From an uncultured virus (IMG/VR IMGVR_UViG_3300037508_001334) (taxonomy: Duplodnaviria; Heunggongvirae; Uroviricota; Caudoviricetes), in the IMG/VR virus record IMGVR_UViG_3300037508_001334: a stretch of DNA of 64,000 bases; one strand, given 5' to 3'. A program made the position numbers and the translations under genes. Each line of letters begins with the position of its first letter. The first letter of the stretch is position 1. Shown piece after piece: positions 31,642 to 48,574 of this stretch. Below the pieces are notes generated by a model. The model made no database searches. It was given only the letters and a program-made list of their open reading frames with translations, and was not told where the DNA came from.

Positions 31642-32555
31642 ATAATTTAATTATTACAAATTCTTCTGGACTTTTTAGTACTTTACTTGGATTTTTTTTC
31701 TGGGTTTATTTATTTGAAAATAATAATTTTGATATTGATTTAAATTTTCATACTAGAAATAAAAGTGGTCCTAACGAAAAAAAATATTATTTTGCAGAAA
31801 TTGTTGAGTCTAACTTATTTCCAAAGAAACTATTGTTTGAAGAAAATATTTTTTTGAATATATTTAAAGAGAATAAATTTTTAGTTAAAGATCATAATCT
31901 AGACGATTTTTTATTTACACATTTATATCCATCTGATATTAAAGAATTTGATGAGTATGTTCCAGAATGTTTAAAAGTTTATAGGGGTAGGGGATTTTAT
32001 AGTGATCAATATGAAAATAAAGAAATAATAGATCAAATTAGAAAATGTTATTATCAAGGATGGAAAGTTTTTGAACTTACTGACGAACTAAAAAAAATTT
32101 CAATTGAAGAAGAAAAACTTATATCTTCAAATACTTTATGTGTTATGCTTAGAACTTCCTTGCATTATGATGGGTATGGGCATAATTCTGAAAAAATTTT
32201 AGAATCTGCTGTTAGGCAAGTCTCTAGTGTAATAGACGATTATGATAAAGTATTAATCACAACTCAAGTTCAACCTTTTTATAATAGATTTAAACAAGTT
32301 TTTGGTAATAAGTGTGTTTCTCCAGAGAGACCAAAAAGATTATCAAGTGATATGGATTGGATTGGTGTCAGTGATTCTATGAGTGATGATGATTATATTG
32401 AAGAATTAAAATATTGTTTATTGGATGTAATTCTTTCTAGTAAATGTAATCATATTATTGGTTCAAGTAGTAATATGTTTTTAGGTGCTTTATCTATGAA
32501 TCCAAATATTGATTATAGTTTAATAACAGATCTTTCTAATTTTAATGGATTATGA
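31638..32555 (+). CDS. Putative glycosyltransferase (NodZ/O-fucosyltransferase-like)
   Basis: SGLFS N-terminal motif; LLDVILSSKCNHIIGSSSN C-terminal motif. Confidence 0.55.
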   Translation: MNNLIITNSSGLFSTLLGFFFWVYLFENNNFDIDLNFHTRNKSGPNEKKYYFAEIVESNLFPKKLLFEENIFLNIFKENKFLVKDHNLDDFLFTHLYPSDIKEFDEYVPECLKVYRGRGFYSDQYENKEIIDQIRKCYYQGWKVFELTDELKKISIEEEKLISSNTLCVMLRTSLHYDGYGHNSEKILESAVRQVSSVIDDYDKVLITTQVQPFYNRFKQVFGNKCVSPERPKRLSSDMDWIGVSDSMSDDDYIEELKYCLLDVILSSKCNHIIGSSSNMFLGALSMNPNIDYSLITDLSNFNGL

Positions 32556-32890
32556 GTAACATTTATGTTTTTGATTTAGATCATACTTTATGTGATACTA
32601 AAAAGGATGATAGTGGGAGATGGTTATATTTTGAATCTGTTCCATATTCTGATAGAATAGAAAAGGTAAATGAATTAAAAAATGAAGGGCACACAATTAT
32701 AATAGAAACTGCAAGAGGAAGTGATTCAAAAATAAATTATTATGAAAAAACTTATAATCAATTAGTTTCTTGGGGGTTAAAATTTGATTTTCTTAGAACT
32801 GGAGTTAAGTTTTCTGCAAATTATTATATTGACGATAAAGCATTAAATAGCGAGGATTTTTTTAATGGCAAGCATTCAATCACTGATTAA
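32552..32890 (+). CDS. HAD-family capsule-biosynthesis phosphatase-like protein
   Basis: FDLDHTLC, TARG, YYIDDKA. Confidence 0.8.
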   Translation: MSNIYVFDLDHTLCDTKKDDSGRWLYFESVPYSDRIEKVNELKNEGHTIIIETARGSDSKINYYEKTYNQLVSWGLKFDFLRTGVKFSANYYIDDKALNSEDFFNGKHSITD

Positions 32891-35354
32891 AAAGTCTCCA
32901 TCTTGGATTCAAAAAATTTATTATAATACTGTTCCATTTTCTCAAAGATATGGAAAAGTTTTTACTGAAACTTATAATTTTCTCTTAGAAAGTGAAAAAT
33001 GGAGTAGAGAAAAACTAGAACAATATCAATTAGAAGAATTTAAAAAGTTAATAAATCATTGCTATACAAATGTCCCCTATTATAAAAAAGTTTTTGATGA
33101 TAGAGGATTAACTCCAAATGATTTTAACTCAATTTCTGATATAACTAAACTTCCATTTCTTACGAAGGATATTATTAGAGAAAATTCAAATGATTTAATT
33201 GCAAAAAATATGAAAGATCAGAAGTCCTATGAGTTCAGGACAAGTGGATCTACAGGAAAGAAATTGGTTTTTTATGCAACTGATGATGTTTATAAAAAAG
33301 AAGCTGCATTTGTTCTTCGTTCATATGAAAAACATGGAGCTCATTTATATGACAAACCAAGTGTTTGGTTGAGAAGATATGTCCCTGTTGATAGAAATTC
33401 CGATCTTTGGTATTATGATTATGAATTAAATCGTCTTTACATGTCTGCGTATCATCTAAATGATGATACTATAAAAGATTATATTTCTAAAATCAATTCT
33501 AAGAAATATCATACCCTTGTTGCATATCCTTCTAGTATTTACGTTCTTGCTTGTCTTTGCGAAAAGCACAAATTAAAATTGGATACAATTCAAAAAATTC
33601 ATGTTTCTTCGGAAATGATGCTTCCCGAATGGAGAAAAAAAATTATAGAAGTTTTTGGAATAGTTCCAGTTGCTCATTATGGTGCGATTGAAAAAGTTTG
33701 TTTTATGCACCAATTAGAAGATAGTGAAAAATATTATGAAAATCTACAATATGGTGTAACTGAGTATATTGATCAGGGTGATGGAACTCATACAATTGTG
33801 GGGACTGGGTTTCTTAATTACTATATGCCATTTCTTAGATATAAGACTGAAGATAGTGTTGTATTAAATTCAAATCCTGGTGATTTTGATAAAGTTTCTA
33901 GTATTAATGGAAGAACAAGTGATATCTTGATTGCTGAAGATGGTTCACAACTTCCAGGAGTTAATTTTTATAGTTGGATTGATAAAAAAGTTCCTGGAGT
34001 TTCTATGTTTCAAATTGTTCAGAAGAGTAGAAAAGATGTGACTTTTAGTTTTGTTGGTAGCAATCAGTATTCTGAAAAAACTATTTCTGAAATTAAAGAA
34101 GGTCTTACCTCTAGACTGGGTAATCTTAATTTTACTATTACTAAGGTAAGAGAGATTAAAAGAAATGAGACCACTGGAAAAATTCGTTGTATTGTTAACA
34201 ATATTTTGAGTTCTTATTCCTCAAAAGAATTATATGATAAACTCTATAATTTAAAAAAGCAAAATGGAACTCACTCCCCAAGTATTAATACTATCATAGA
34301 AAATATACCAGAAATTCAATGTAATATTGATGCTTGTTTTTTGAGCAATCCTTATGCAACTGATTTATTTCTAAAAAGATTTAATCAAGATTTAATTGTC
34401 CCAAATAATATTCGTAATTATCTTGAACTTTATCCACAACAAAATAAATTCGTATCCAAAAAGATTTCCGAATATATTGGTATTCCTTCTGAAAATATTT
34501 TAATAGGTAATGGGGCTATTGAAATTATTGAAAAGGTAATGAATAATATGGTAGGCAAGATTTTAATCGGTCTTCCAACATTTTCTTCTTATTATGAATT
34601 TAATAAAGATTGTGAAATTGTTAAGAGTGAAAAAAAATTAGATTCTGTAGAAAATGTAGTAAGTGAAGTTAGGAGAACTTCTTCCAATAATCTTCTTTTA
34701 GTTAATCCAAATAACCCAACAGGTCATTATATTATTAAAGAAGATTTAAAACATATTTTGTCACAATTAAAAGATTTGAATACTATTATTGTTGATGAAA
34801 GTTTTATTCATTTTGCAACAAAAGATAATCCAAATGATGATTCTATAGGAGAATTTGTTCTTGAATATCCAAATTTAGTTGTTATTAAAAGTATGTCAAA
34901 GGATTTTGGCATTGCTGGTATTAGGTGTGGATATGCTATAATGTCAAAGGAAAAGGTAAAACTTTTTATTGAAAAAGGTTTCCTTTGGAACTCTAATGGC
35001 ATCTCTGAGTATTTCTTTAATTTACTTTCGGATAAATCTTTTATTGTAGAATATGAAAAAACTAGAATTAAGTTTTTAGAAGAGTTTGAAGAATTTTTTG
35101 AAGAACTTAATAAAATTAAAGAAATTCAAGTATATGAATCAAAAACAAATTTCTTTCTAATTGATCTTAAAACTAAAAAGTCTTTTGATTTTATGTGTTG
35201 GATGTTGATTGAAAAGGGAATTTATGTGAGATGTATGGATGATAAAATTGGAATGGGTATTGATAGTGATACTTTTGTTAGAATTGCTGGAAAGACCCGT
35301 GAAGAAAACAACTACATAATACAGTCAATTAAAGAATTTATTGGTGAAGTATAA
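32865..35354 (+). CDS. Fusion of a CapK/phenylacetate-CoA-ligase-like adenylate-forming domain and a class I/II PLP aminotransferase
   Basis: LPFLTKD, RTSGSTG, YGAIE, MPFLRYKTED, GRTSD, TGKIR; then NGAIEII, VNPNNPTG, VDESF, KSMSKDFGIAGIRCGY. Confidence 0.8.
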   Translation: MASIQSLIKKSPSWIQKIYYNTVPFSQRYGKVFTETYNFLLESEKWSREKLEQYQLEEFKKLINHCYTNVPYYKKVFDDRGLTPNDFNSISDITKLPFLTKDIIRENSNDLIAKNMKDQKSYEFRTSGSTGKKLVFYATDDVYKKEAAFVLRSYEKHGAHLYDKPSVWLRRYVPVDRNSDLWYYDYELNRLYMSAYHLNDDTIKDYISKINSKKYHTLVAYPSSIYVLACLCEKHKLKLDTIQKIHVSSEMMLPEWRKKIIEVFGIVPVAHYGAIEKVCFMHQLEDSEKYYENLQYGVTEYIDQGDGTHTIVGTGFLNYYMPFLRYKTEDSVVLNSNPGDFDKVSSINGRTSDILIAEDGSQLPGVNFYSWIDKKVPGVSMFQIVQKSRKDVTFSFVGSNQYSEKTISEIKEGLTSRLGNLNFTITKVREIKRNETTGKIRCIVNNILSSYSSKELYDKLYNLKKQNGTHSPSINTIIENIPEIQCNIDACFLSNPYATDLFLKRFNQDLIVPNNIRNYLELYPQQNKFVSKKISEYIGIPSENILIGNGAIEIIEKVMNNMVGKILIGLPTFSSYYEFNKDCEIVKSEKKLDSVENVVSEVRRTSSNNLLLVNPNNPTGHYIIKEDLKHILSQLKDLNTIIVDESFIHFATKDNPNDDSIGEFVLEYPNLVVIKSMSKDFGIAGIRCGYAIMSKEKVKLFIEKGFLWNSNGISEYFFNLLSDKSFIVEYEKTRIKFLEEFEEFFEELNKIKEIQVYESKTNFFLIDLKTKKSFDFMCWMLIEKGIYVRCMDDKIGMGIDSDTFVRIAGKTREENNYIIQSIKEFIGEV

Positions 35355-35357
35355 TTT

Positions 35358-36605
35358 ATGAATATTAGTTTCATTGGATTGGGAAAACTTGGACTACCTC
35401 TTGCTTGTTGTTTAGCTAGATCTGGAAATAGAGTCCTTGGAATAGATAAAAACCCATATTTCATAAAAAAATTAAATAATAAAGAACTTCCTTTTTATGA
35501 ACCAGATTTGAATAAATTTTTTATTCATAGTGGAGATGTGGATCCTCATCCAAATTTTATGGGATTTACAGATTCATATGAAAATATTTTTAAAGATACT
35601 GATGCTACTGTGATTCTAGTTAATACTCAAAGTGATGATGGTGGATATTCGTCTGCAATTGTAGAATCAGTATTGCAAGAATTTTCTGAAAATTTTAAAA
35701 ATTCAAACAAAGATTATCATTTAATCGTTTTATCTTCTACAGTTCTCCCAGGTACTATTAAAAAATTAATTTCTCTTGTTGAAAAAGTATCTGGCAAAAA
35801 ATATGAAAAAGATTTTGGATTTTCTTATGTCCCCGATTTTGTTAAACTGGGAAATGTTATTCATGATTTTAAAAACCCAGAATTTTTCTTGATAGGTGCA
35901 AATAATATTGAAGATATTATACTTACAAAATCTATTTGGTATAAATTTCACGATAATAATCCACCATGCAAAATTTTAACTCTTGAGGAAGCTGAAGTAG
36001 CTAAAGTTTCTTTAAATGCTTTTATAGTTAATAAAATTTCATTTGCAAATTTTTTGGGTGAAGTTTGTGATGGCATGGAAAATGTGAATGTTCATAATAT
36101 CACAAATGTAATAGGACTGGATAAAAGAATCTCCCCTTATTTTTTTGGATACGGAACTCCTTATGGTGGGACTTGTTTTCCAAGAGATACTACTGCTTTT
36201 ATTAAATTTTCTGAAGATAGAGGAAAATCGGCAAAACATTTAATTTTTGCTGAAGAAGTTAATCAGATGGTGTATAATAGTTTGTTTGAAAAAGTAAAAT
36301 CTTATCAAAATATTGCTATTCTTGGTACATCGTTTAAACCAAACTCTCCAGTTACAATTGGTTCTCCTAGTGTAACCTTAATCAACTATCTTGAAAATGC
36401 AAATAAAACAATTTATTGTCATGATTTTCTTAAAGAAACTTTTGAAAACTTAAAATTATTTCAAGGTGTTGGAGTTACAACTTGCGATGAAGTGCAAGAC
36501 TGTATTGATAAATCTGAAGTCGTTATTGTAATGCATCCGGATAAAAGATATAAGGATTTTAACTATTCTAATGTAAATGTTATAGACTATTGGGGAGTAA
36601 TTTGA
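35358..36605 (+). CDS. UDP-glucose/GDP-mannose dehydrogenase family protein
   Basis: GLGKLG, SSTVLPGT, KISFANF, YGGTCFPRD. Confidence 0.9.
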   Translation: MNISFIGLGKLGLPLACCLARSGNRVLGIDKNPYFIKKLNNKELPFYEPDLNKFFIHSGDVDPHPNFMGFTDSYENIFKDTDATVILVNTQSDDGGYSSAIVESVLQEFSENFKNSNKDYHLIVLSSTVLPGTIKKLISLVEKVSGKKYEKDFGFSYVPDFVKLGNVIHDFKNPEFFLIGANNIEDIILTKSIWYKFHDNNPPCKILTLEEAEVAKVSLNAFIVNKISFANFLGEVCDGMENVNVHNITNVIGLDKRISPYFFGYGTPYGGTCFPRDTTAFIKFSEDRGKSAKHLIFAEEVNQMVYNSLFEKVKSYQNIAILGTSFKPNSPVTIGSPSVTLINYLENANKTIYCHDFLKETFENLKLFQGVGVTTCDEVQDCIDKSEVVIVMHPDKRYKDFNYSNVNVIDYWGVI

Positions 36606-36608
36606 ATC

Positions 36609-37499
36609 ATGGCAAAGAAAAAATTTAAACTAATTGATAATTGTTTTTCCTGGGTTGGTAAAGGACAGCACGGAGAAAATTTGGGTGGAGCTACTCCTAA
36701 TAGAGTTCCCAAATATATTGAGTGGGTTCATGAAGGATACGGTAATCACCAATCTACTTTTAACAATCTGACCAAAAAAGATAAAACATTCTATACTGAG
36801 GATTTAATCCTTCTTGGACTTGAAGATAATAAAAGTGCTAAGAAGTATGGGTATCTATTTGAACCAAAGTGGTACAATAAAACTGCAGTATACATCAAAA
36901 ATAATCCTGATAAATTTGTGGAGCATTATGATGCTATTTTTACTCATGATCAAGAATTAATAGATATTAACCCAGATGTTTTCAAATTTGCTTATGGTCA
37001 GGGATCTATCATTGAAGAAGTTGGCATTTTTGATAAAACAAAATTAGTTTCTTCTATTTTATCTGATAAAGCAATGTCTAATGGGCATAAACTTAGAATT
37101 GAAATTGGTAAACAACTAGAAGAAAGTGGACAAGTTGATTGTTTTGGAAAATTGCATAACAAGTTTCTTGATAAAAAAATTATAGGAATGAAGGATTATA
37201 TGTTTTCATTTGCTTTTGAAAATGATGTTTATCCTCATTATTTTACAGAAAAACTTCTTGATTGTTTTTTGACAGGAACAATTCCAATTTATTTGGGAGA
37301 TCCAGAAATTGGAAAGTTTTATAATATTGATGGAATTATTCAAATTGATTATAAAGATGGTGGAATTGAATTTAATTCTGAATGTTTAACTGAAGAATTT
37401 TATAAAGATAGACTTGATGCAGTAAAAGATAATTTTGAAAGAGTTGTGGATCGGCAAAGTGTTGAAGATTATATCTATCTAAATTATTTTAACGATTAA
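36609..37499 (+). CDS. Glycosyltransferase family 10 (alpha-1,3-fucosyltransferase-like)
   Basis: YMFSFAFEN....YFTEKLLDCFLTGTIPIYLG motif. Confidence 0.8.
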   Translation: MAKKKFKLIDNCFSWVGKGQHGENLGGATPNRVPKYIEWVHEGYGNHQSTFNNLTKKDKTFYTEDLILLGLEDNKSAKKYGYLFEPKWYNKTAVYIKNNPDKFVEHYDAIFTHDQELIDINPDVFKFAYGQGSIIEEVGIFDKTKLVSSILSDKAMSNGHKLRIEIGKQLEESGQVDCFGKLHNKFLDKKIIGMKDYMFSFAFENDVYPHYFTEKLLDCFLTGTIPIYLGDPEIGKFYNIDGIIQIDYKDGGIEFNSECLTEEFYKDRLDAVKDNFERVVDRQSVEDYIYLNYFND

Positions 37500-37506
37500 G
37501 ATTGAT

Positions 37507-38349
37507 ATGATAGGAATGAATTCTTTGGGTAAAAATGGTAGAATTGGAAATCAACTTTTTCAATATGCAGCACTAATAGGTATTGCAAAAAATCGTGGAT
37601 TTGATTTTTGTATTCCTGACCATTCTCAAATAAAAGTTTTTGAAGATAGTTCTGGAAGATCTGAATATCATCAATTACAAAAATGTTTTAAACTTTCATA
37701 TCTCAATGGTAGATATGGATATATTGATGGTGATATTGTTGAATTGAATCAGCACCATTTTTGTAAAGAATTATTTGACGAATGTCCAGATAATGTAACT
37801 CTTCATGGACATTTTGAAAGTTATAAGTATTTTGAAAATGTTCATCAAGAACTTAAAAAAGACTTAGAATTTCATGAAAATATAAAAGAAGAATCTGAAA
37901 AATTTCATAAAAAAAATAATCTAGAAAATCCTGTTGCAATTATTATACGACGTGGAGACTTTCTTTTATATCCAAATTGTCATCCTGTGTGCGATTCTCA
38001 ATACTATGAAAAATGTATGAATCATTTTGAAAATGATAGACAATATGTAATCATTTCGGATGACATTGAATGGTGTAAAAACCAAAATATTTTTTCTGGT
38101 AATAATTTCTATTTTGTGGATAAGACTCCCAATAAACTTATGAAAGCACATTATGATATGTGTATCGGTTCTATTTGTGATCATTTTATTATTTCAAATA
38201 GCACTTTTGCTTGGTGGATTTCTTGGCTTGGGTCAAATCAAAATAAACAAGTTTACATGCCAGATCCTTGGTTTGGTGCAACTTATAATGAATGGATTAC
38301 TGACGGATATTATTCAACATATAGCATTAAAATTGGGAGGAAAATTTAA
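37507..38349 (+). CDS. Glycosyltransferase family 11 (alpha-1,2-fucosyltransferase-like), copy 1
   Basis: GRIGNQLFQYA, IRRGDF, SDD, ISNSTFAWW. Confidence 0.85.
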   Translation: MIGMNSLGKNGRIGNQLFQYAALIGIAKNRGFDFCIPDHSQIKVFEDSSGRSEYHQLQKCFKLSYLNGRYGYIDGDIVELNQHHFCKELFDECPDNVTLHGHFESYKYFENVHQELKKDLEFHENIKEESEKFHKKNNLENPVAIIIRRGDFLLYPNCHPVCDSQYYEKCMNHFENDRQYVIISDDIEWCKNQNIFSGNNFYFVDKTPNKLMKAHYDMCIGSICDHFIISNSTFAWWISWLGSNQNKQVYMPDPWFGATYNEWITDGYYSTYSIKIGRKI

Positions 38350-39219
38350 ATGATTGGATATAATAAATTGGGAAACAATGGCCGTTTGGGTAATCAAATG
38401 TTTCAATATGCCTCATTAAGAGGAATTGCGGCAAAACATGGATATGAATGGTGTATTCCTCCTGAAAATTGTGTGAACGATTCAAACTATGGTTTGTTTG
38501 AAACATTTGAGATGACTAATGTAAAACCACACAATATTGGATACGTGAATGGACCTACAATTCAAGAATCCAATCATAATTTAGATTCAAATTTATTTGA
38601 CAAATGTCCAGATAATGTAAACATACATGGATATTTGCAAACCGAGAAATATTTTAAACATATAAAAGAACAAATTCTTGAAGATTTTGCATTTAAAAAA
38701 GATTACTTAGATCCTTGTAAAAATTTTATTGAAAGTTTGGATAGGCCACCTATCTTTTTACATATTCGCAGAACAGATGCTGTTGGTAGGGAAAAATTTC
38801 ATCCAAGACTTCCTTTGTCCTATTTTGAAGAGGCACTCTCAAATTGGAGTGAAGATATTCCTGTATTTGTATCGACAGACGATCTTGCTTGGTGCAAATC
38901 TCAAACTTTTTTTGACCAAGACAGATTTCTTTTTAATGAATCAAATGATAGATATTCATATCAAACAATTGATGGAACTGGTGTTATGCAAAATACACTT
39001 CTACCTCAGGTTGATTTGTGTTTAATGAGTTTATGTCATGGTGGAATTATTGCAAATTCTTCATCTTTTTCTTGGTGGGGCGCCTGGCTTCAAAATGGTA
39101 AGGGACCAATTATTGCACCAAATCCCAAAACTTGGTTTGGACCTCAACTTTCACATCTAAATACGTGCGATATGATTCCTGAAAATTGGAAGATTCAAAC
39201 TTGTAATAATATAATTTAA
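38350..39219 (+). CDS. Glycosyltransferase family 11, copy 2
   Basis: GRLGNQMFQYA, HIRRTD, IANSSSFSWW. Confidence 0.85.
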   Translation: MIGYNKLGNNGRLGNQMFQYASLRGIAAKHGYEWCIPPENCVNDSNYGLFETFEMTNVKPHNIGYVNGPTIQESNHNLDSNLFDKCPDNVNIHGYLQTEKYFKHIKEQILEDFAFKKDYLDPCKNFIESLDRPPIFLHIRRTDAVGREKFHPRLPLSYFEEALSNWSEDIPVFVSTDDLAWCKSQTFFDQDRFLFNESNDRYSYQTIDGTGVMQNTLLPQVDLCLMSLCHGGIIANSSSFSWWGAWLQNGKGPIIAPNPKTWFGPQLSHLNTCDMIPENWKIQTCNNII

Positions 39220-39242
39220 AAAATACCACGAATTTGTTTTAA

Positions 39243-40046
39243 ATGTTAGATAATTTAACCTTTGTAACTCCTCTTCAAATTGAAAGTAATGATAGATTGA
39301 GAAATTCCATCACAGTATTTTCTTACTTATCCAAAAATTTTCCTGAATCAAATATTATTATTAAAGAAATTGATACGGAATCAAAATTTATTAAATATGC
39401 ATTACCCAAAATTAAAGATAATTGTGATGCAAAAAATATAAATCATATTTTTGAATATCATGAAGGTTTATTTAATAAATCAAAAACCATAAATGATATG
39501 GTTTTAATGTCAAATACTGATATAGTTTTTAATTATGATGTTGATGTTATGCTTCCATTAGAGACATATCAAAAATCTTATGATATGATATCTGTCGGAC
39601 AATGTGATATAGTATATCCGTATGGTTCAGGAATTTATCAATATAATGTTTTAAATTTTGATGACCACTTTGTCAATTTTATATCTTCTCAATTTGATTT
39701 AATTCAATTAATACCATTTAGTCAAAGATGTCCATCTGTTCAGGGATGGTGTCAAATGTTTGATAAAAAAAAGTTTCTGGAATTTTATGGTTTTAATGAG
39801 AATTTTATATTTGTTGGTTATGAAGATACTGAGTTTTTGTATCGGACGAGTGTATTGGGAGCAAGAATAGGTAGAGTCAATGACGATATATATCATTTAG
39901 ACCACATAAGAGTACACAACAAAAATTATAGTGATAAGGAATTTTATGAAAAAAATATTATGTTGTGGGAATGGATGAGATGCCAAGACAAAAAATCCAT
40001 TGAAAATTATTATAATAATCAAAACTATACTAATAGATTTAAATGA
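39243..40046 (+). CDS. Glycosyltransferase, GT2/GT7-C (galactosyltransferase)-like, copy 1
   Basis: DRLRN, YDVD (DxD), FNENFIFVGYEDTEF, YHLDH. Confidence 0.75.
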   Translation: MLDNLTFVTPLQIESNDRLRNSITVFSYLSKNFPESNIIIKEIDTESKFIKYALPKIKDNCDAKNINHIFEYHEGLFNKSKTINDMVLMSNTDIVFNYDVDVMLPLETYQKSYDMISVGQCDIVYPYGSGIYQYNVLNFDDHFVNFISSQFDLIQLIPFSQRCPSVQGWCQMFDKKKFLEFYGFNENFIFVGYEDTEFLYRTSVLGARIGRVNDDIYHLDHIRVHNKNYSDKEFYEKNIMLWEWMRCQDKKSIENYYNNQNYTNRFK

Positions 40047-40843
40047 ATTTAACTTTTTTGATTCCATCAAAATTAGAAAGTGAGGATAGAGTTAGAAATT
40101 TATCAACGGTTTTAATTTATCTTTTATCAAAATTTGATGCTTATGTATTTGTTAAGGAGTGTGATTTTACTCCTAAATTTGAAACTTTTGTATCTCCTTA
40201 TCTAATTGAAAAATTCGGAGATATTCCTAAAAAACTTAAATATTTTTATGAAAAACAAGAGTCTCCTTTTTTCCATAAAACAAAAATTCTCAATGATTTA
40301 ATATTGCAATCAAATACTGAGATTGTTTGTAATTATGATACTGATGTTTTATTTCCAAATTCAAGTATCATTAAATCATATGAAATGATTGATTCTGGGC
40401 AATCAGATGCGGTTTACCCTTATGGTTGTGGTGTATATCAAAAAGCAATAGAATATTCGGATAAAACTTTTAAAAATTTCATTAATTCTGATTTGGATAT
40501 TAAATATCTGGATCAATTTAGTAAAATTAATAACTCAACTATTGGGTGGTGTCAATTTATTAGAAAAAGAAATTATGTTGATTCATTTATGATGAATGAA
40601 AATTTTCATGCGTGGGGTCCTGAAGATTGTGAACTTTATTATCGTTTAAATTTTTTGGGAAATAAAGTTGACAGAATCAATGATTACGTTTATCATTTGG
40701 AACATACTAGGTCTAATGACTCTTGGTTTTCTAATCCAATGTGGAAAGAAAATACTGAATTGTGGAATTGGATTAGATCTCAACCAAAAGAATCTTTATT
40801 AAGTTATTACAAAAATCAAGATTATATAAAATGGAGAATTTAG
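40043..40843 (+). CDS. Glycosyltransferase, GT2/GT7-C-like, copy 2
   Basis: DRVRN, YDTD, NENFHAWGPEDCE, YHLEH. Confidence 0.75.
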   Translation: MNLTFLIPSKLESEDRVRNLSTVLIYLLSKFDAYVFVKECDFTPKFETFVSPYLIEKFGDIPKKLKYFYEKQESPFFHKTKILNDLILQSNTEIVCNYDTDVLFPNSSIIKSYEMIDSGQSDAVYPYGCGVYQKAIEYSDKTFKNFINSDLDIKYLDQFSKINNSTIGWCQFIRKRNYVDSFMMNENFHAWGPEDCELYYRLNFLGNKVDRINDYVYHLEHTRSNDSWFSNPMWKENTELWNWIRSQPKESLLSYYKNQDYIKWRI

Positions 40844-41653
40844 ATGTTAGCTTTTAATCATTTGGGTAGATTGGGCAGATTAGGGAATCAAATGTTTCAG
40901 TATGCAGCGGTTCGTGGCATTGCTGCAAATAAAGGATATGAATGGTGTATTCCAAATCATGATCAAGAAGTTGATGATGGAATCGGAAATAAATTACGAA
41001 CAGAAATATTTGATTGTTTTAATCTCACAAATCTTTCAAAAAGAAACATTTTTGTTCTTGACAGAGGATATGCTCCTATTGTTCAAGAAAAATTTTTTCA
41101 TTTTGATCAAGAACTTTTTGATCTTTGTCCCAATGAAGTTTCTTTATATGGATTTTTTCAATCTGAAAAGTGGTTTAAAAATATAGAGAATCAAATAAGG
41201 GATGATTTTTCTTTTAAAGATGAAATTTTAAGTCCTTGTTTGGAAATGATATATCAAGTTGATAAACCAATTTCTCTTCATATTAGGAGAGGGGATTTTC
41301 TTTTAAATAATAAAAATCATCCACCACAATCAATAGAATATTATGAAAATGCTTTGGCTCACTTTGATAATCATCGTCAAGTATTAGTTTTTTCAGACGA
41401 TCCAAGTTGGTGTAACGAACAACCTATATTTGCCGATGAAAGATTTCTGATTGCTGAAGGAAATTCCAATTATGTTGATTTATGTTTAATGTCTCTTTGT
41501 TCTTCTCATATTATTGCTAATTCTACTTTTTCTTGGTGGGGTGCTTGGTTATCTGGCACAAAAGATGTGATTGCTCCTCAAAATTGGTTTGGTCCAAATC
41601 TAAACCAAAATAATACTAAAGATTTATATTGTGATGGATGGGAAATAATCTAA
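40844..41653 (+). CDS. Glycosyltransferase family 11, copy 3
   Basis: GRLGNQMFQYA, HIRRGDF, FSDD, IANSTFSWW. Confidence 0.87.
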   Translation: MLAFNHLGRLGRLGNQMFQYAAVRGIAANKGYEWCIPNHDQEVDDGIGNKLRTEIFDCFNLTNLSKRNIFVLDRGYAPIVQEKFFHFDQELFDLCPNEVSLYGFFQSEKWFKNIENQIRDDFSFKDEILSPCLEMIYQVDKPISLHIRRGDFLLNNKNHPPQSIEYYENALAHFDNHRQVLVFSDDPSWCNEQPIFADERFLIAEGNSNYVDLCLMSLCSSHIIANSTFSWWGAWLSGTKDVIAPQNWFGPNLNQNNTKDLYCDGWEII

Positions 41654-42450
41654 TGGATAAAAATAAATCAACTTATAAACTTAAAGGTATTGGTCCAATT
41701 TATTATCTTAATCTTGATGGGCAACCAGAAAGAAGACAGTATATGGAAGACCAATTCAAGTATTGGGAAATTGAAAATTATACTCGTATCTCTGCATATG
41801 ATGGTCGTGAAGATGACTTAAGTGATATTCTTGTAGGACGTTACCCTGAAATGATGACTTCGGGTGAAGTTGGATGTATCACTTCTCATCTTAAAGCAAT
41901 TAAACATTGGTACGAAACATCTGATAGTCCTTATGCAGTGATTATGGAAGATGATTGTAATTTAGATTTAGTGAAGTATTGGAATTTTACTTGGAATGAT
42001 TTTTATGCTCATATTCCTTATGATTGGGATGTAATTCAGATTGCTATTATTTGTACCGGAGACATACACGTTAAGCTTCATAAAAGGTTTGTAAATGATT
42101 TCTCAACTGCCTGCTATTTGATTAATCGGCATCATGCAGAAAAAATTTTAAAATTTCACGTTCGTGGAGAAAAGTATAAACTTGATAATGGGGTTAAGCC
42201 TCGTCCTGTTGCTGATGATTTGATTTATAATTCTGGAAATACTTATTCTATTCCTCTTCTTCTTTATAGAATTGAATTGGGATCCTCTATTCACCCAGAG
42301 CATATTGATGCTTTTCATATGGGTAACCATAAAGCACTTTCTCAATTTTGGGAACAAAATGGTGCTAATATCGATATTCGGGATTATATGAATTACGATC
42401 CTTATCTTGGTAGGATAACTGAAAATTCTGCTGCTCAGCAAAACTCTTGA
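41653..42450 (+). CDS. Glycosyltransferase family 25
   Basis: YYLNLD..PERR, RISAYDG, GEVGCITSH, IMEDD. Confidence 0.85.
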   Translation: MDKNKSTYKLKGIGPIYYLNLDGQPERRQYMEDQFKYWEIENYTRISAYDGREDDLSDILVGRYPEMMTSGEVGCITSHLKAIKHWYETSDSPYAVIMEDDCNLDLVKYWNFTWNDFYAHIPYDWDVIQIAIICTGDIHVKLHKRFVNDFSTACYLINRHHAEKILKFHVRGEKYKLDNGVKPRPVADDLIYNSGNTYSIPLLLYRIELGSSIHPEHIDAFHMGNHKALSQFWEQNGANIDIRDYMNYDPYLGRITENSAAQQNS

Positions 42451-42510
42451 CACAGTAAAAGATATGTATTATACTAAATAAGTACTTAAGAATTCTGTTG
42501 TAATTCTTAA
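42447..42510 (+). promoter_or_regulatory. Sigma70 promoter for the porin with a downstream palindromic operator
   Basis: TTGACA 42447-52, 17 nt spacer, TATACT 42470-75; TTAAGAATT-N7-AATTCTTAA at 42486-42510. Confidence 0.65.
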
Positions 42511-42546: not shown

Positions 42547-44025
42547 ATGAAACTCAATCAACTGATGCTTGCACCTGTTGCTCTGGGAATGGTTGCTCCT
42601 GTTGCTGCGAATGCCGCAGAACTGAATATGGTAGCAGTCAATCAATACTCCGAGAGTCAGGTTACAAGTATTTCTCAATTCTCTGATGTCCGTCCTACCG
42701 ATTGGGCATATCAGGCACTTAACAACCTTGTAGATCGTTATGGTTGTGTTGCTGGTTATCCCAATGGTACCTTTGGTGGTGGTAAGGCAATGACTCGTTT
42801 TGAGGCAGCTGCTCTTCTGAATGCTTGCCTTGATCGTGTATCAGAAACCACTGACGAACTTCGTCGTCTTCTTAATGAATTTCAAGGAGAACTTGCTGTT
42901 CTTCGTGGTCGTGTTGATGGACTGGAAAAGAGAGTTGGTGTTCTTCAAGCACAACAATTTTCCACTACCACTAAACTCAAAGGTGAAGCAAACTTTGTTC
43001 TTGGTGGTGTAAATGGTGCCCAACTTCGTAACGGAACTCAAGTTGGAAACACTGCTTTTAACTATGACCTTCGTCTGAACTTTGATACTTCATTCACTGG
43101 TAAAGATCTGCTTCGCACTCGTCTGCGTAGTGGTAATTTCAGTGCTCAACCTTTCGGTTCTTCGGGTTCGCTGTTCAAACTGGATAAGGCAGAAACCACT
43201 GCTGATGGTGTAATCATTGACCGTCTGTATTATAGTTTCCCTGCACTTGCAAAGGGTGTAACTGTGACTGCTGGTGCTCTGGTTCGTAATACCGAAATGA
43301 CGTGGATTCCTTCTGCATACAAATCGGAAATTCTTGACTTCTTCCAAGTTGCTGGTGCTCCTGGTGTCTATAACAAGGCAACTGGTCAAGGTTTTGGTAT
43401 TCAGTATGTTCAACCTGGTAAGAAAGGTGGCATCGTTGCTGGTCTGAACTATGTTGCTCAAGATGGTGACAATAGTTCAACTGGTGTATTCAATTCCACT
43501 GGTGGTCTGAATACTCTGGCACAACTTGGTTATCGTGCTCCTAACTGGGGGGTCGCTTTCGGTTATCGTTACGGCACTCAAGGCACTCGTATTCGTACCT
43601 TTAATGGTCTGAATGGTGCTAATGGAACTCTCGGCGCAAATCAAGGTTCTAACGGTTATGCAATCAATGCTTACTGGCAACCTGTTCAGTCTGGTATTGT
43701 TCCTTCTGTTTCACTTGCTTATGGTTGGAACTATGTTGCAGGGCCTTCTACTCCTAATAATGCAACCAATTCCCAAACCTGGATGGCAGGACTTCAATGG
43801 AATGATGTTTTTGCAAAGGGTAATGGTGCTGGATTTGCTGTTGGACAACCTGGCAATGCACAGGGTCTCTCTGCAAATGCAACAATGTGGGAAGTGTTCT
43901 ATAAGTATCGTGTAAGTGATAATATCAGTATCACTCCCGCACTCTTCTATGTTTCCAACAACCAAGCATTCTCTGGTACTTCCAGTAATGTTGGTGGTGT
44001 GATTCAAACCAAATTCACGTTCTGA
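42547..44025 (+). CDS. Cyanobacterial outer-membrane porin (SLH domain plus OprB/Som-type beta-barrel)
   Basis: Signal peptide; FSDVRPTDWAYQAL..YGCVAGYP SLH domain; coiled coil; QFSTTTKLKGE; terminal KFTF. Confidence 0.93.
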   Translation: MKLNQLMLAPVALGMVAPVAANAAELNMVAVNQYSESQVTSISQFSDVRPTDWAYQALNNLVDRYGCVAGYPNGTFGGGKAMTRFEAAALLNACLDRVSETTDELRRLLNEFQGELAVLRGRVDGLEKRVGVLQAQQFSTTTKLKGEANFVLGGVNGAQLRNGTQVGNTAFNYDLRLNFDTSFTGKDLLRTRLRSGNFSAQPFGSSGSLFKLDKAETTADGVIIDRLYYSFPALAKGVTVTAGALVRNTEMTWIPSAYKSEILDFFQVAGAPGVYNKATGQGFGIQYVQPGKKGGIVAGLNYVAQDGDNSSTGVFNSTGGLNTLAQLGYRAPNWGVAFGYRYGTQGTRIRTFNGLNGANGTLGANQGSNGYAINAYWQPVQSGIVPSVSLAYGWNYVAGPSTPNNATNSQTWMAGLQWNDVFAKGNGAGFAVGQPGNAQGLSANATMWEVFYKYRVSDNISITPALFYVSNNQAFSGTSSNVGGVIQTKFTF

Positions 44026-44770: not shown

Positions 44771-44795
44771 AGGAGGGATAAAACCCTCCTTTTTT
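44771..44795 (+). terminator. Terminator after the hli operon
   Basis: AGGAGGG/CCCTCCT stem plus T tract, followed by late-promoter-like CATAAATA. Confidence 0.75.
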
Positions 44796-44826
44796 CATAA
44801 ATATAATGCAGAGTTGTTTCAAATAT

Positions 44827-45525
44827 ATGTTAGTAGATCTTCATAACTTTTTTAAGCATTATGATGAAAAGAATCCAAGGCACGTTGCTGCTGTAGAAAA
44901 ACTTGAAAAGGACTTGCTTCTAAAAGCACAAGACTTAATTCAAGATGAATCTGAGTGGGTGAAGACTTTTAGATCAAAACCAGAAGTACCAAAATCAAAT
45001 ATTCTATCTGTACCATTTTATCCACAAACAGATAATTATAGGGATGCAGATCGTACCTGCAACTCATCTGCTTGTGCGATGTGTTTAGAATATTTTAAAC
45101 CTGGTACTCTTAAAGGAGCAAAGGGGGATGATGCCTACGTTCAAAAAGTTTTCGCAATCGGTGACACGACTGATCACTTGGTTCAAACCCGTGTTTTGGC
45201 GTCTTATGGCATTAAGTCACATTTTAGTTATGGTCTATCTTTTAATGACCTTGACCGTGAGCTTGCTGCTGGGAGACCCGTGGTTATTGGGATTCTCCAC
45301 CGTGGCACTTTATCTACTCCTACTGGCGGGCACATGGTTGTAGTTATTGGTAAAACTCCTGGTGGAGATTATGTGGTTAACGATCCTTATGGATCATTAA
45401 ATGATGGATATACAAGTGCTGTAACCAATGGTAAAGGTGCTGTGTATAAGAGATCTGATTTATCCCGTAGATGGTGCCCTGCTGGCAATGATGGGTGGGG
45501 TAGAATCTTTGACGAAAAAAAGTAG
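44827..45525 (+). CDS. C39-like cysteine peptidase (probable cell-wall hydrolase)
   Basis: VPFYPQTDN, TCNSSACAM (Cys), GGHMVVVIG (His), VNDPYG (Asp). Confidence 0.82.
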   Translation: MLVDLHNFFKHYDEKNPRHVAAVEKLEKDLLLKAQDLIQDESEWVKTFRSKPEVPKSNILSVPFYPQTDNYRDADRTCNSSACAMCLEYFKPGTLKGAKGDDAYVQKVFAIGDTTDHLVQTRVLASYGIKSHFSYGLSFNDLDRELAAGRPVVIGILHRGTLSTPTGGHMVVVIGKTPGGDYVVNDPYGSLNDGYTSAVTNGKGAVYKRSDLSRRWCPAGNDGWGRIFDEKK

Positions 45526-45581
45526 ATAACTCTACTCCTTCTGCGAGCAAATATGATGTGCCCGTAAAGGGAGTAGAGTTA
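45516..45581 (+). other. Putative programmed -1 ribosomal frameshift signal
   Basis: In-frame A_AAA_AAG (45516-22), TAG, then hairpin TAACTCTACTCC (45527-38) / GGAGTAGAGTTA (45570-81); the -1 frame is open into the lysozyme. Confidence 0.75.
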
Positions 45582-46016
45582 ATCAAAGAGTTTGAAGGAT
45601 GTCATCTCTCTGCCTATCCTGATCCGCTATCGGGTGGACTACCTATCACTATAGGATGGGGAAGCACTAGAGATTTCAATGGTAAACCATTCAATCTTGG
45701 TGATAAAATTTCTCAAAAGGTTGCTGATGATTTGCTTATCAGTCAAATCAAGCGAGAATTTATTCCTGCCCTATCTAAGATACCTTATTGGAGTGAGATG
45801 AATGACAATCAACGCGGAGCACTTTTATCCTTTGCTTACAATCTCGGTGCTGGCTTTTACAATTCAAGCAATTTCAATACTATCTCTCGACATCTTCGTG
45901 AAAAGAATTGGGGATTCATCCCAAAAACATTAGAGATGTATCGCAATCCTGGTAGTAATGTAGAGGCGGGATTGCTGAGACGTAGAAAATCGGAAGGTAA
46001 ACTCTGGGTTTCTTAA
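45558..46016 (+). CDS. Phage lysozyme (GH24) domain, probably the C-terminal part of a frameshift fusion
   Basis: LIKEFEG..AYPD....TIGWG catalytic E-D-T, ALLSFAYNLG, GLLRRRKSE. Confidence 0.9.
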   Translation: MPVKGVELIKEFEGCHLSAYPDPLSGGLPITIGWGSTRDFNGKPFNLGDKISQKVADDLLISQIKREFIPALSKIPYWSEMNDNQRGALLSFAYNLGAGFYNSSNFNTISRHLREKNWGFIPKTLEMYRNPGSNVEAGLLRRRKSEGKLWVS

Positions 46017-46258
46017 TCATCCATCTTTGCTTTTAATCCTAGTAACGCTGTAAACAAAGTAAACAAAGCATTATATCCTCTACTTTCGGATTCTTTACAA
46101 TCTAGGGGTGGTGGGTTTACTAATCCACCTAATGCGTCTGCTCTCTCCATAGAACCTGGAAGCATAAAGTTACAGTTGACAAATGTAATACCAACATATC
46201 CAAGTGTTGCTACTACAATACCAACAATTAATTTATCTATTAGTTTAATGTTTTTCAT
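46013..46258 (-). CDS. Small two-TM membrane protein
   Basis: Two hydrophobic helices; convergent with the lysozyme. Confidence 0.6.
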   Translation of the reverse strand: MKNIKLIDKLIVGIVVATLGYVGITFVNCNFMLPGSMERADALGGLVNPPPLDCKESESRGYNALFTLFTALLGLKAKMDD

Positions 46259-46373
46259 TGCTACTATCCTTTAGTTCTTGATTTGCCATCCATAATATTT
46301 TATAGATCACCCAACCAACACCAATCATTCCAATACCTAACATAATATTTACTGACCAAACAATGTTATTCAT
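46245..46373 (-). CDS. 42-aa single-TM peptide
   Basis: Hand-translated MNNIVWSVNIMLGIGMIGVGWVIYKILWMANQELKDSSNEKH. Confidence 0.55.
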   Translation of the reverse strand: MNNIVWSVNIMLGIGMIGVGWVIYKILWMANQELKDSSNEKH

Positions 46374-46561
46374 TTTTCTTCTTGTTTATGAATCCAAGTT
46401 TTAAGTTCATGCAAATATTTTCTTAACATTTCTGCTTTTTGTAAATGCCACACATCACCACTCTTGAAATATTCGTGAGTGTGATTATCGATTGCTTTTA
46501 ATATTTGATGTATTGGTGCATTCCAAGGTTCTCTTTTGGGAGTGTTCCATTCCCGTGGCAT
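46370..46561 (-). CDS. Hypothetical protein
   Basis: MPREWNTPKREPWN...; TAAATA on the minus strand upstream. Confidence 0.65.
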   Translation of the reverse strand: MPREWNTPKREPWNAPIHQILKAIDNHTHEYFKSGDVWHLQKAEMLRKYLHELKTWIHKQEEK

Positions 46562-46753: not shown

Positions 46754-48574
46754 ATGAATCCTCTAAGTTCATTCCGCAACTTTACCAACAGGTTTCCCCT
46801 TAGATCTGCTGAATACAATAGCAACAATGACAAATCATCCAATCAATCACAGGGGCAATCTGCCATCAGTATTGCATCAGTGAGTTATCAGAGCAAGTCT
46901 TATGAAAGTGGTGAAACACTTCCGTGGGGAATTCAAGCAGTCTGGCAGGGAGAAGACATTTCCAAAAGAGGTAATTTTGCATCTGAATCCTATGCATTTG
47001 TAATTGACTCTGGAGTTTCCGATAAAACAGATGATTTAAACTTAAATAAAGATTGGGCACGAAGTTGGGTTTATACTCCATCTGGACTTGAATCTCCTTT
47101 TTCAGACGGAAATGGACACGGGACTCATATTGCAGGAGTCATTGGAGCACTTGTTAACGGCAAAGGTATTATTGGAGTATCACCAGGAGCACAAATTGTT
47201 TCACTTAAGGTGAATAATGACTTTGGTTTTGGAGATGGCAACACCACTGCTGAAGCAGTCAACTATGCCGCAAACATCATCAATGATAATAAACTAGACA
47301 AAAAGAAATGTGTCATCAATTTGAGTCTTGTTGCACACTCCCGTGATCCAAAACTGGAGTCGGCAATTCTTCGTGCCGCAGATCAGGGAATTCAATTCAC
47401 TATTGCTGCGGGTAACTTTGGCAAAGATGTAGATAACTTTGCCCCTGCTTGTATTGGAAGTCATCCAAATGTTTATGTGGTATCTGCCGTAGACAGTTCA
47501 AATCAAGTCCCATTCTGGTCAAATTATGATCGTCTTGATACCGCAACCGATGCTGATGATGTTGATTATGCTGCACCAGGAGTTAACATTCTTTCATATC
47601 ATAAAAACGGACAACTCGGCACTTTGAGTGGAACATCTCAAGCAGCACCCCATCTTGCTGGATTGCTGATTAGTGGAGGGGTACAAGCAGGAAATATGGT
47701 CAAGTCAAATTATGCCAATACCGCAGATCCTTTTGTAATATCTGCGACTCAATCATTATTGCCTGTACAAGTACAACCTGCCGCAAAACAATCCCCACCA
47801 ACATATAACCTAGTAAGTAATGCCACTATCAATGAGGGGCAAACATTAAAGATTGACATCGCAACAACTAATTTAACAAAGGGTACACCTTTGTACTGGA
47901 GCATTTCTGGTAACGGTATTTCTACTAACGATTTCACTGGACTTTCTGATTTGAAAGGAAATCTATCAATAGATGCCAAAGGCAATGCCACCGTTAGTTT
48001 TAACCTAAAGAATGATTTGAATACAGAAGGAACTGAGTCAATTAAATTTGAACTCTTCAGTGATTCTGCCCGTTCAATTAAAGTTGGGGATAAAAGTGCT
48101 GAGATTCAAGATACATCCAAAACACCATCTCCAAGTTTAACACTTTGGGGTACAAATGGTAATGATATTATTACAGGTGGTGCTGGTGATGATTTTATTG
48201 CTGGTGTTGCACGGACTGGGACTGATTTGACATCAATGGGTCGTGGACAATTTGATATTCTTACGGGTGGTCTTGGAAAGGATGTATTTGTATTGGGTGA
48301 TAGTCGTGGAACATTTTATGATGATGGCATTAAATCCAATCACGGTGCAAATGACTATGCTTTAATCAAAGATTTCAAAGCAGGTGAGGATAAAATTCAA
48401 GTCAAAAAGGGTCAAGGAGTCGTATGGAAAGCATTGGATGCCAATGTTTTAGTTTATTATGACTTGAATCGTAATCGTGGTATTGAAACGTCTGGACCTA
48501 ACCGAGATGATTTAATTGCAATTCTTGAAGGTGTAACGACATTGAGCAACAGTGATATTCTCGTTGCTAGGTAA
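46754..48574 (+). CDS. Subtilisin-family (S8) serine protease with C-terminal RTX/Ca-binding region
   Basis: Catalytic triad VIDSG, HGTHIAG, SGTSQAAPH; GTNGNDIITGGAGDD and DILTGGLGKDVF repeats. Confidence 0.9.
   Translation: MNPLSSFRNFTNRFPLRSAEYNSNNDKSSNQSQGQSAISIASVSYQSKSYESGETLPWGIQAVWQGEDISKRGNFASESYAFVIDSGVSDKTDDLNLNKDWARSWVYTPSGLESPFSDGNGHGTHIAGVIGALVNGKGIIGVSPGAQIVSLKVNNDFGFGDGNTTAEAVNYAANIINDNKLDKKKCVINLSLVAHSRDPKLESAILRAADQGIQFTIAAGNFGKDVDNFAPACIGSHPNVYVVSAVDSSNQVPFWSNYDRLDTATDADDVDYAAPGVNILSYHKNGQLGTLSGTSQAAPHLAGLLISGGVQAGNMVKSNYANTADPFVISATQSLLPVQVQPAAKQSPPTYNLVSNATINEGQTLKIDIATTNLTKGTPLYWSISGNGISTNDFTGLSDLKGNLSIDAKGNATVSFNLKNDLNTEGTESIKFELFSDSARSIKVGDKSAEIQDTSKTPSPSLTLWGTNGNDIITGGAGDDFIAGVARTGTDLTSMGRGQFDILTGGLGKDVFVLGDSRGTFYDDGIKSNHGANDYALIKDFKAGEDKIQVKKGQGVVWKALDANVLVYYDLNRNRGIETSGPNRDDLIAILEGVTTLSNSDILVAR

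Follow-up and report, generated by a model that had tools for sequence, protein, structure and literature searches.

In Escherichia coli, the dnaX gene carries the slippery heptamer A_AAA_AAG together with a stem-loop, and in the "reversed" dnaX of some bacteria the shift is needed for the long product (PMC5009743). In E. coli, A_AAA_AAG promotes shifting far more readily than A_AAA_AAA or U_UUU_UUU does, and its slipperiness is determined by the tRNA-Lys set of the host, about half of bacteria having a single tRNA-Lys (PMC5009743). Here, we describe a comparable site in a 64-kb stretch of DNA (hereafter the window) from the uncultured virus IMGVR_UViG_3300037508_001334. The window belongs to a T4-like cyanophage. 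In it, the gene of a papain-like peptidase ends on A_AAA_AAG and a stop codon, a hairpin follows, and a lysozyme lies downstream in the −1 frame. An earlier note on this DNA had proposed that the locus yields a peptidase of 232 amino acids (aa) and, through the heptamer, a peptidase–lysozyme fusion of about 396 aa. The comparative checks suggested in that note all strongly favour this core proposal, and we consider it highly probable that a late cyanomyovirus gene ends here in a site of programmed −1 ribosomal frameshifting. In the window phage, in S-PM2 and S-CAM7, and in dozens of relatives, the lysozyme would most likely be made by a −1 slip at the end of the peptidase gene.

The locus resembles dnaX in its A_AAA_AAG heptamer, its simple 3′ stem-loop and its two predicted products with a common N-terminus, and it resembles reversed dnaX in having the zero-frame stop right after the shift site and a long product that depends on the shift. 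The forward and reversed forms of dnaX can be likened to two kinds of junction found among the relatives of the window phage: those in frame with an immediate stop in the −1 frame (locus L187 and phage ACG-2014f) and those that are split (locus L198). It differs from dnaX in that the gene encodes a cell-wall hydrolase and not a polymerase subunit, in that the stem is closer to the heptamer (2–5 nucleotides [nt]), and in that a 5′ Shine–Dalgarno (SD) stimulator lacks independent support. In OrfA/OrfAB of the IS3 family (IS911, IS150), A_AAA_AAG likewise lies near the end of the first open reading frame (ORF), the second ORF is in the −1 frame without efficient initiation, and a structure lies on the 3′ side. 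In IS911 the structure is a three-way junction, with an upstream SD (PMC5009743), whereas the window has a plain hairpin. The IS3 product serves transposition, and that of the window is a predicted lysis enzyme fusion.

Structural −1 frameshifts of phages occur in the lambda G/GT tail chaperone and in the T7 10A/10B capsid protein. Like the shift proposed here, they go by −1 close to where a late gene ends and yield a minor product extended at its C-terminus, but they use other heptamers and belong to other gene classes, and they add structural extensions where the window would add a whole second catalytic domain. T7 gene 10 is mentioned in the recoding review (PMC5009743). For a lysin, two isoforms are described in mycobacteriophage Ms6, whose LysA is produced as Lysin384 and Lysin241 by an internal translation start (PMC3111421). 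Ms6 and the window would thus have in common a long and a short cell-wall hydrolase from one lysis locus; the Ms6 isoforms share their C-terminus and arise by in-frame initiation, whereas those of the window would share their N-terminus and arise by recoding. The PRFect paper counts "lysins" among the genes known to have a frameshift and cites for this a study of a lactococcal phage lysin, Shearman et al. 1994 (PMC10885494). No description of a frameshifted cyanophage lysin was found in the literature searched, and the words "endolysin" and "lysozyme" are both absent from the part of the recoding review that was covered, 300,000 of 449,034 characters. Within that literature, the proposed mechanism is classical and dnaX-like, and the gene class is new.

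The peptidase ORF occupies 44827–45525 of the plus strand, which we take as the zero frame, and ends in TAG. It matches Peptidase_C39_2 (PF13529) at 51 bits (cut-off 24). Homologues are 228–253 aa long, so the start is placed at ATG 44827, which gives 232 aa. The ORF ends in GAA AAA AAG TAG, with the heptamer in the zero frame at 45516–45522 and the TAG immediately 3′ of it at 45523–45525; the coordinates given in the earlier note were correct. Decoding of this TAG as a sense codon was considered and rejected: the zero frame reaches TAA 14 codons on, and relatives have TAA or TGA at the place of the TAG. The −1 frame is open from 45513 and reads RKKVDNSTPSASKYDVPVKGVELIKEFEG... Its continuation past the slip site (45522–46016, plus strand, with the stop at 46014–46016) comprises a linker of about 19 codons (45522–45578) and then a GH24 lysozyme, which matches Phage_lysozyme (PF00959) at 78.2 bits (cut-off 22.3) and, as its nearest solved relatives, GH24 endolysins by sequence (E from 5e-12 to 1e-4).

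Families annotated as endolysin in PHROG match both halves. The peptidase corresponds to positions 1–235 of phrog_3617 and to the peptidase half of the "endolysin" phrog_10051, and the lysozyme corresponds to positions 245–404 of phrog_3617, a family of 405 positions that spans both window ORFs colinearly. Both phrog_3617 and phrog_10051 are built on single-ORF two-domain proteins. In an alignment of 16 natural fusions, residues C77, C82 and H168 of the peptidase are invariant, as is the Glu of the EFEG motif in the lysozyme (E256; GAA at 45594–45596, plus strand). As in GH24 enzymes generally, this Glu is the predicted catalytic residue. The motif reads KEFED in locus L202, which was counted as lysozyme-bearing. 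A sequence search found no solved structure related to the peptidase.

According to the mechanism proposed, most ribosomes would read 44827–45525 to the TAG and release the 232-aa papain-like peptidase, and a fraction would slip back one base on A_AAA_AAG, aided by the hairpin 2–4 nt downstream and probably also by the adjacent stop codon. The slip could be a tandem one on AAA AAG or could take place in the P site with the stop waiting in the A site; the protein would be the same either way. Slipped ribosomes would read GTA GAT AAC... through the linker into the lysozyme, giving a two-enzyme cell-wall hydrolase of about 396 aa. The set ratio supposed in the earlier note is a weak point of the proposal: peptidase and fusion may be made at such a ratio, and both products may act as the phage endolysin.

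To compare junctions, loci were gathered with four protein queries, namely the peptidases of the window, S-PM2 and S-CAM7 and the fused protein of ACG-2014f. At most the best 80 relatives were kept per query (of 410, 428, 358 and 25), many contigs recurring between queries, and records of named phages were added; loci were picked by protein similarity and not by their junction. The 212 rows with a peptidase followed by a lysozyme gave 100 distinct junctions, or 99 after the removal of one artefact of the regular expression. These comprised 72 adjacent split genes, 7 split genes with a distant lysozyme and 20 in-frame fusions. The distant lysozymes lay at 176 nt (five junctions), 332 nt and 592 nt. 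In the five junctions of 176 nt, an ATG overlapping the stop (ATGA) opens an N-terminal extension of about 58 aa. The loci L206–L215, L225 and similar ones have this ATGA overlap, a lysozyme with a ~58-aa N-terminal extension of unassigned function, and no heptamer.

An in-register zero-frame heptamer was kept in 70 of the 72 distinct adjacent junctions (67 AAAAAAG, one AAAAAAA and two TTTTTTT). Both exceptions have an ATG or GTG overlapping the stop. A stop-overlapping ATG, GTG or TTG was present in 14 of the 72, for example the ATGA of S-SRM01; the heptamer occurred in all 58 junctions without such a start and in 12 of the 14 with one. In 52 of the 70 junctions the heptamer adjoins the stop; 16 have one codon between the two, and two have two codons. 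Of the 67 AAAAAAG sites, 52 are next to the stop and 15 are separated from it by one codon. Among the 68 A-type sites, 67 encode the two Lys residues as AAA AAG. The first A comes from a codon that differs between sites (GCA 35, GTA 29, ACA 3, GAA 1), as does its amino acid (Ala, Val, Thr or Glu), and the A is always in the third position. The heptamer was absent from all 17 distinct peptidase tails without a downstream lysozyme and from all seven junctions with a distant lysozyme.

The TTTTTTT site belongs to S-CAM7, together with a 98%-identical contig that has the same junction, and to L250. In S-CAM7 (L167, 1950–2010), L249 and L250, the sequence is GTT TTT TTT, with 8 T, two codons before the stop, and an 8-base-pair (bp) hairpin lies 5 nt downstream. 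An A-to-G change in the stem of L250 preserves pairing as G-U.

The lysozyme was in the −1 frame in all 72 adjacent junctions, across 13 spacer lengths that are all 2 mod 3, and the −1 frame was open from the heptamer in 70 of the 70 junctions that have one. In a family of 20 sequences, variation in the linker fell on third positions of the −1 frame in 9 of 11 columns, compared with 5 of 11 in each of the other frames. Synonymous and non-synonymous changes were 27:24 in the −1 frame and 12:35 and 7:38 in the others, and both of these other frames have stops in all 20 sequences. Because third-position variation and the synonymous ratio both favour the −1 frame, the comparison indicates that the linker is translated in that frame.

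The 3′ hairpin was also confirmed. Its perfect 12-bp core pairs TAACTCTACTCC (45527–45538) with its exact reverse complement GGAGTAGAGTTA (45570–45581), starting 4 nt past the heptamer. In the RNAfold prediction, the stem extends to 45525–45584 (plus strand) with −29.3 kcal/mol. The values for 200 dinucleotide shuffles were −13.5 ± 2.6 kcal/mol (z = −6.04), and none of the 200 folded as well. Different lineages have at least five unrelated stems in this position, and in each of them codons of the linker pair with the opening codons of the lysozyme. The largest stem family (20 distinct sequences, 14 bp) had 98.6% of its cells paired, and partners slid by 1–3 columns paired in only 30–48%. The compensatory changes that had been suggested as a check were found, with both sides changed in 4 of the 14 pairs. 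This level was reached by 1 of 500 shuffles and the covariation score of the family by 0 of 500, frequencies that are not probabilities, as the shuffle control ignores relatedness.

Hairpin strength, expressed as the median z against mononucleotide shuffles, differed among the junction classes. It was −3.62 in junctions without an overlapping start (n = 53), −2.67 in fusions that keep the heptamer (n = 6), −1.24 in junctions with the long N-terminal extension (n = 6), −1.11 in those with an overlapping start (n = 14) and −0.46 in fusions without the heptamer (n = 10). The strength of the predicted hairpin tracks the need for a shift. Of the first 52 junctions, 19 have the stem 2 nt past the heptamer, 10 have it at 7 nt, five at 5 nt and three at 4 nt; this spacing of 2–7 nt is in part below the textbook value. 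Rfam gave no relevant match to the hairpin, the sole hit, a snoRNA family at E 0.65, being noise. An intrinsic terminator was considered as another role for the hairpin and rejected: it has no T-run, and a terminator scan found nothing there.

In-frame fused versions, another of the checks suggested, also exist. ACG-2014f encodes a 405-aa in-frame peptidase–linker–lysozyme, and 13 other distinct marine junctions are fused with the same domain order. L143 (1880–1960) and the L161 group each have one extra A relative to their split relatives and keep the hairpin; their single ORFs, of 403 and 395 aa, are the protein predicted for the −1 shift. Four contigs, each from a different dataset, have the identical L161-type junction (L161/L163/L165, L188–L191). 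Structural modelling of the L161 protein gave two folded parts and, between them, a linker of low confidence (residues 230–239) at a moderate mean predicted local distance difference test score (pLDDT) of 67.5. In Foldseek, its C-terminal part matches the GH24 endolysins PHAb10 and AbLys1 and P22 lysozyme, and its N-terminal part weakly matches the papain-fold Nostoc Alr0975 and staphopains (E from 1e-3 to 1e-2). S-CREM1 (L082, 1474–2655) encodes a 393-aa "lysozyme" with the order reversed, the lysozyme at residues 13–149 and the peptidase at 223–351. ACG-2014f and S-CREM1 thus have the two domains of the window in one polypeptide, but their long form needs no recoding. Most marine fusions (14 of the 20 distinct ones) differ from the window in having neither heptamer nor hairpin.

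Four in-frame fusions, L166 (ACG-2014f_Syn7803US26, 1990–2040), L170, L171 and L187, retain an in-register A_AAA_AAG, and a −1 shift in them meets TGA at once (AAA AAA GTC TGA). In ACG-2014f, a GC-rich hairpin, GGAGGG/CCCTCC, begins 5 nt past the heptamer. By analogy with dnaX, fusions of the L166 type would give their short form by frameshifting. This suggests a wider reading, which we put forward tentatively and think rather unlikely to hold as a whole: the peptidase–lysozyme boundary of Kyanoviridae would be a maintained two-isoform recoding site at which single-base indels flip the isoform that needs the shift. The window phage, S-PM2 and S-CAM7 would make the long form by a −1 shift; ACG-2014f and L187 would make it in frame, and ribosomes slipping at their A_AAA_AAG and hairpin would run into the TGA and yield the short form.

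An alternative to the frameshift is that the locus holds two separate genes and makes no fusion. The lysozyme would have its own start, GTG 45558 in the window and a different or non-canonical codon in relatives, or would be reached by termination and reinitiation. By translational coupling, the hairpin would hide the start until it is unfolded by ribosomes that complete the peptidase. We regard this as improbable. The GTG (45558–45560, plus strand, in the lysozyme frame) is the first and only ATG, GTG or TTG of the window lysozyme frame before the catalytic Glu, and it is enclosed by the hairpin, as the earlier note had said. The other argument of that note, the missing SD, is weak. Cyanobacterial genes often have no SD, a point that suits independent initiation. 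The stronger argument is that five relatives of the same stem family do not conserve the codon: at the homologous position, four split ones have ATT (S-PM2), ATA, CTA or TTA, and the fused L161 has GTA. On this evidence the GTG reads as a linker codon for Val/Ile/Leu and not as a conserved start, and it may give some extra initiation in the window phage beside the shift. The start codons overlapping the stop in 14 of the 72 adjacent junctions, and the ATGA overlaps of five distant ones, also speak for two genes. But no ATG, GTG or TTG precedes the catalytic Glu in the lysozyme frame of 26 of the 72, among them S-PM2 and S-CAM7, and in a further 12 the only candidate is a TTG, at a conserved Leu four codons before the Glu that is TTA or CTC elsewhere. 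Under independent initiation, spacer indels would be free to alter the frame, so the constraint seen over 13 spacer lengths would be left unexplained, as would the invariant choice of AAA AAG and the −1 periodicity from the heptamer onward. The heptamer is dispensable just in junctions with an overlapping start, of which 2 in 14 have lost it, compared with 0 in 58 of the others.

The same fusion would also result from slippage of the RNA polymerase, with an extra A in a fraction of the transcripts and normal translation afterwards, a route that we consider very unlikely. The L143 and L161 variants show that the A-run is prone to indels, and the run of the window has 7 A; however, the 67 AAAAAAG sites have 6 A, the window-type junction excepted, and the transcriptional slippage described for bacteria occurs on runs of 9 A or T (PMC5009743). 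The invariant X_XXY_YYZ register and the final G are needed for tandem tRNA slippage and not for the polymerase, and the conserved structure lies downstream of the run, in the position of a ribosomal stimulator. Contigs of an RNA run (X15), from a relative, span 45466–45900 without an indel in the A-run, a weak argument as contigs drop rare variants; they place the junction in that library and demonstrate neither its transcription nor a lack of slippage. Since most sites have 6 A and the structure is downstream, ribosomal slippage is favoured over polymerase slippage as the probable source of the fusion. An assembly error in the homopolymer, or a fused gene broken recently, has next to no probability. 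In-frame versions that differ by a single A do exist, but contigs of three DNA runs (2016, 2020 and 2024), some of which may be the source sample itself, had 0 differences and 0 indels over 45200–45900, and the junction is identical in three IMG/VR contigs from different datasets. The 7-A run of the window is not an assembly slip. With the split state in 72 distinct junctions, including those of two cultured lytic phages, and the lysozyme domain intact and conserved, the explanation by artefact or decay is refuted for practical purposes. Some points weigh against the programmed ribosomal frameshift that we prefer. A canonical in-frame start of some kind is present in 46 of the 72 adjacent junctions, including the GTG of the window, and independent initiation may coexist with the shift. 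The stem begins 2–4 nt past the heptamer in the window and 2 nt past it in 19 of 52 relatives, compared with about 6 nt in dnaX. The variants with one extra A in the genome (L143, the L161 group) and the 8-T run of S-CAM7 fit polymerase slippage equally well. The junctions come from related phages, and their counts are not independent events.

The annotation of deposited genomes bears on the same frame. The "lysin" coding sequences (CDSs) of S-PM2 (72 aa, p157; L081, 2454–2672) and S-CAM7 (90 aa; L167, 2208–2480) start at an internal Met and are C-terminal fragments without the catalytic Glu, although the −1 frame of S-PM2 holds a complete PF00959 domain despite its truncated annotation. The "endolysin" family phrog_10457 (95 positions) matches just the C-terminal part of the lysozyme (residues 91–164) and was probably built on such truncated annotations.

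A further argument of the earlier note was not supported. The G-rich GGGTGGGG (45493–45500, plus strand) had been proposed as an internal SD-like stimulator. It encodes a conserved Gly-Trp-Gly, and it is also found in all 17 distinct peptidase tails without a downstream lysozyme. Because the Gly-Trp-Gly codons force the motif and tails without a lysozyme have it, GGGTGGGG is no evidence for a stimulator.

On the 5′ side of the peptidase gene, CATAAATA (44796–44803, plus strand) lies about 24 nt before the start. The motif ATAAATA was present in 45 of 108 distinct homologue upstream regions, in 41 of these at 27–32 nt before the ATG, with an expectation of 0.034 per region. Read against what we take to be the T4-type late-promoter consensus, the motif is late-promoter-like. 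Just 5′ of the peptidase gene, 44771–44796 (plus strand) holds a GC-rich hairpin (AGGAGGG...CCCTCCT) with TTTTTT after it, the probable terminator of the small genes that come before.

Elsewhere, the window encodes a gp43-type DNA polymerase, a DnaB-like helicase, NrdA/NrdB, psbA and the baseplate tail tube cap, and has 10 tRNA genes, among which tRNA-Lys is absent. At the lysin locus, the nearest named relatives are Kyanoviridae, S-PM2 (73.9% DNA identity over 97% of the query) and then S-SRM01. Public runs that contain the stretch are lake and freshwater metagenomes. Upstream, at 42547–44025, a 492-aa ORF combines an SLH with an OprB-type porin domain: the phage genome carries here a cyanobacterial gene for an outer-membrane porin. 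In DSL-LC03, an outer-membrane beta-barrel gene adjoins the lysin genes. Farther upstream, a low-GC island (32000–42500; 27–29% compared with ~35%) carries a run of same-strand ORFs, including a UDP-glucose dehydrogenase and a glycosyltransferase, and is a block of polysaccharide-synthesis genes. Immediately 3′ of the lysis locus, 46754–48574 encodes a subtilase (Peptidase_S8) of 606 aa that has an RTX calcium-binding repeat. Just past the lysozyme, on the minus strand (46013–46561), are three small ORFs of 81, 42 and 63 aa, two of which have hydrophobic stretches as judged by eye; the 42-aa ORF matches phrog_814, a family of unassigned function. They may be membrane or lysis accessory proteins. 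No holin was identified in this region, the membrane-like small ORFs at 46013–46373 being on the opposite strand and without functional annotation.

If the frameshift reading is true, the deposited lysin gene models of the model cyanophages S-PM2 and S-CAM7 are wrong, and the real enzyme is a 44-kDa two-domain hydrolase made by recoding. A lysis enzyme would then join the short list of −1-frameshifted phage genes, so far mostly tail chaperones and capsid proteins, and the lysis of cyanophages, which is poorly understood, would gain a concrete and testable mechanism for setting an enzyme ratio. The value of the finding lies in a new gene class, a correction of annotation and an evolutionary series, and not in a new principle. 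The same domain boundary is found frameshifted, ATGA-coupled, hard-fused, reverse-fused or separated, states that form a clean natural series on the gain and loss of recoding sites. If the two-isoform reading were also true, the boundary would be the phage lysis counterpart of the tau/gamma reversal of dnaX, and the efficiency of the shift, through the translation state of the host and the modification of tRNA-Lys, would set the ratio of peptidase to lysozyme and so influence lysis.

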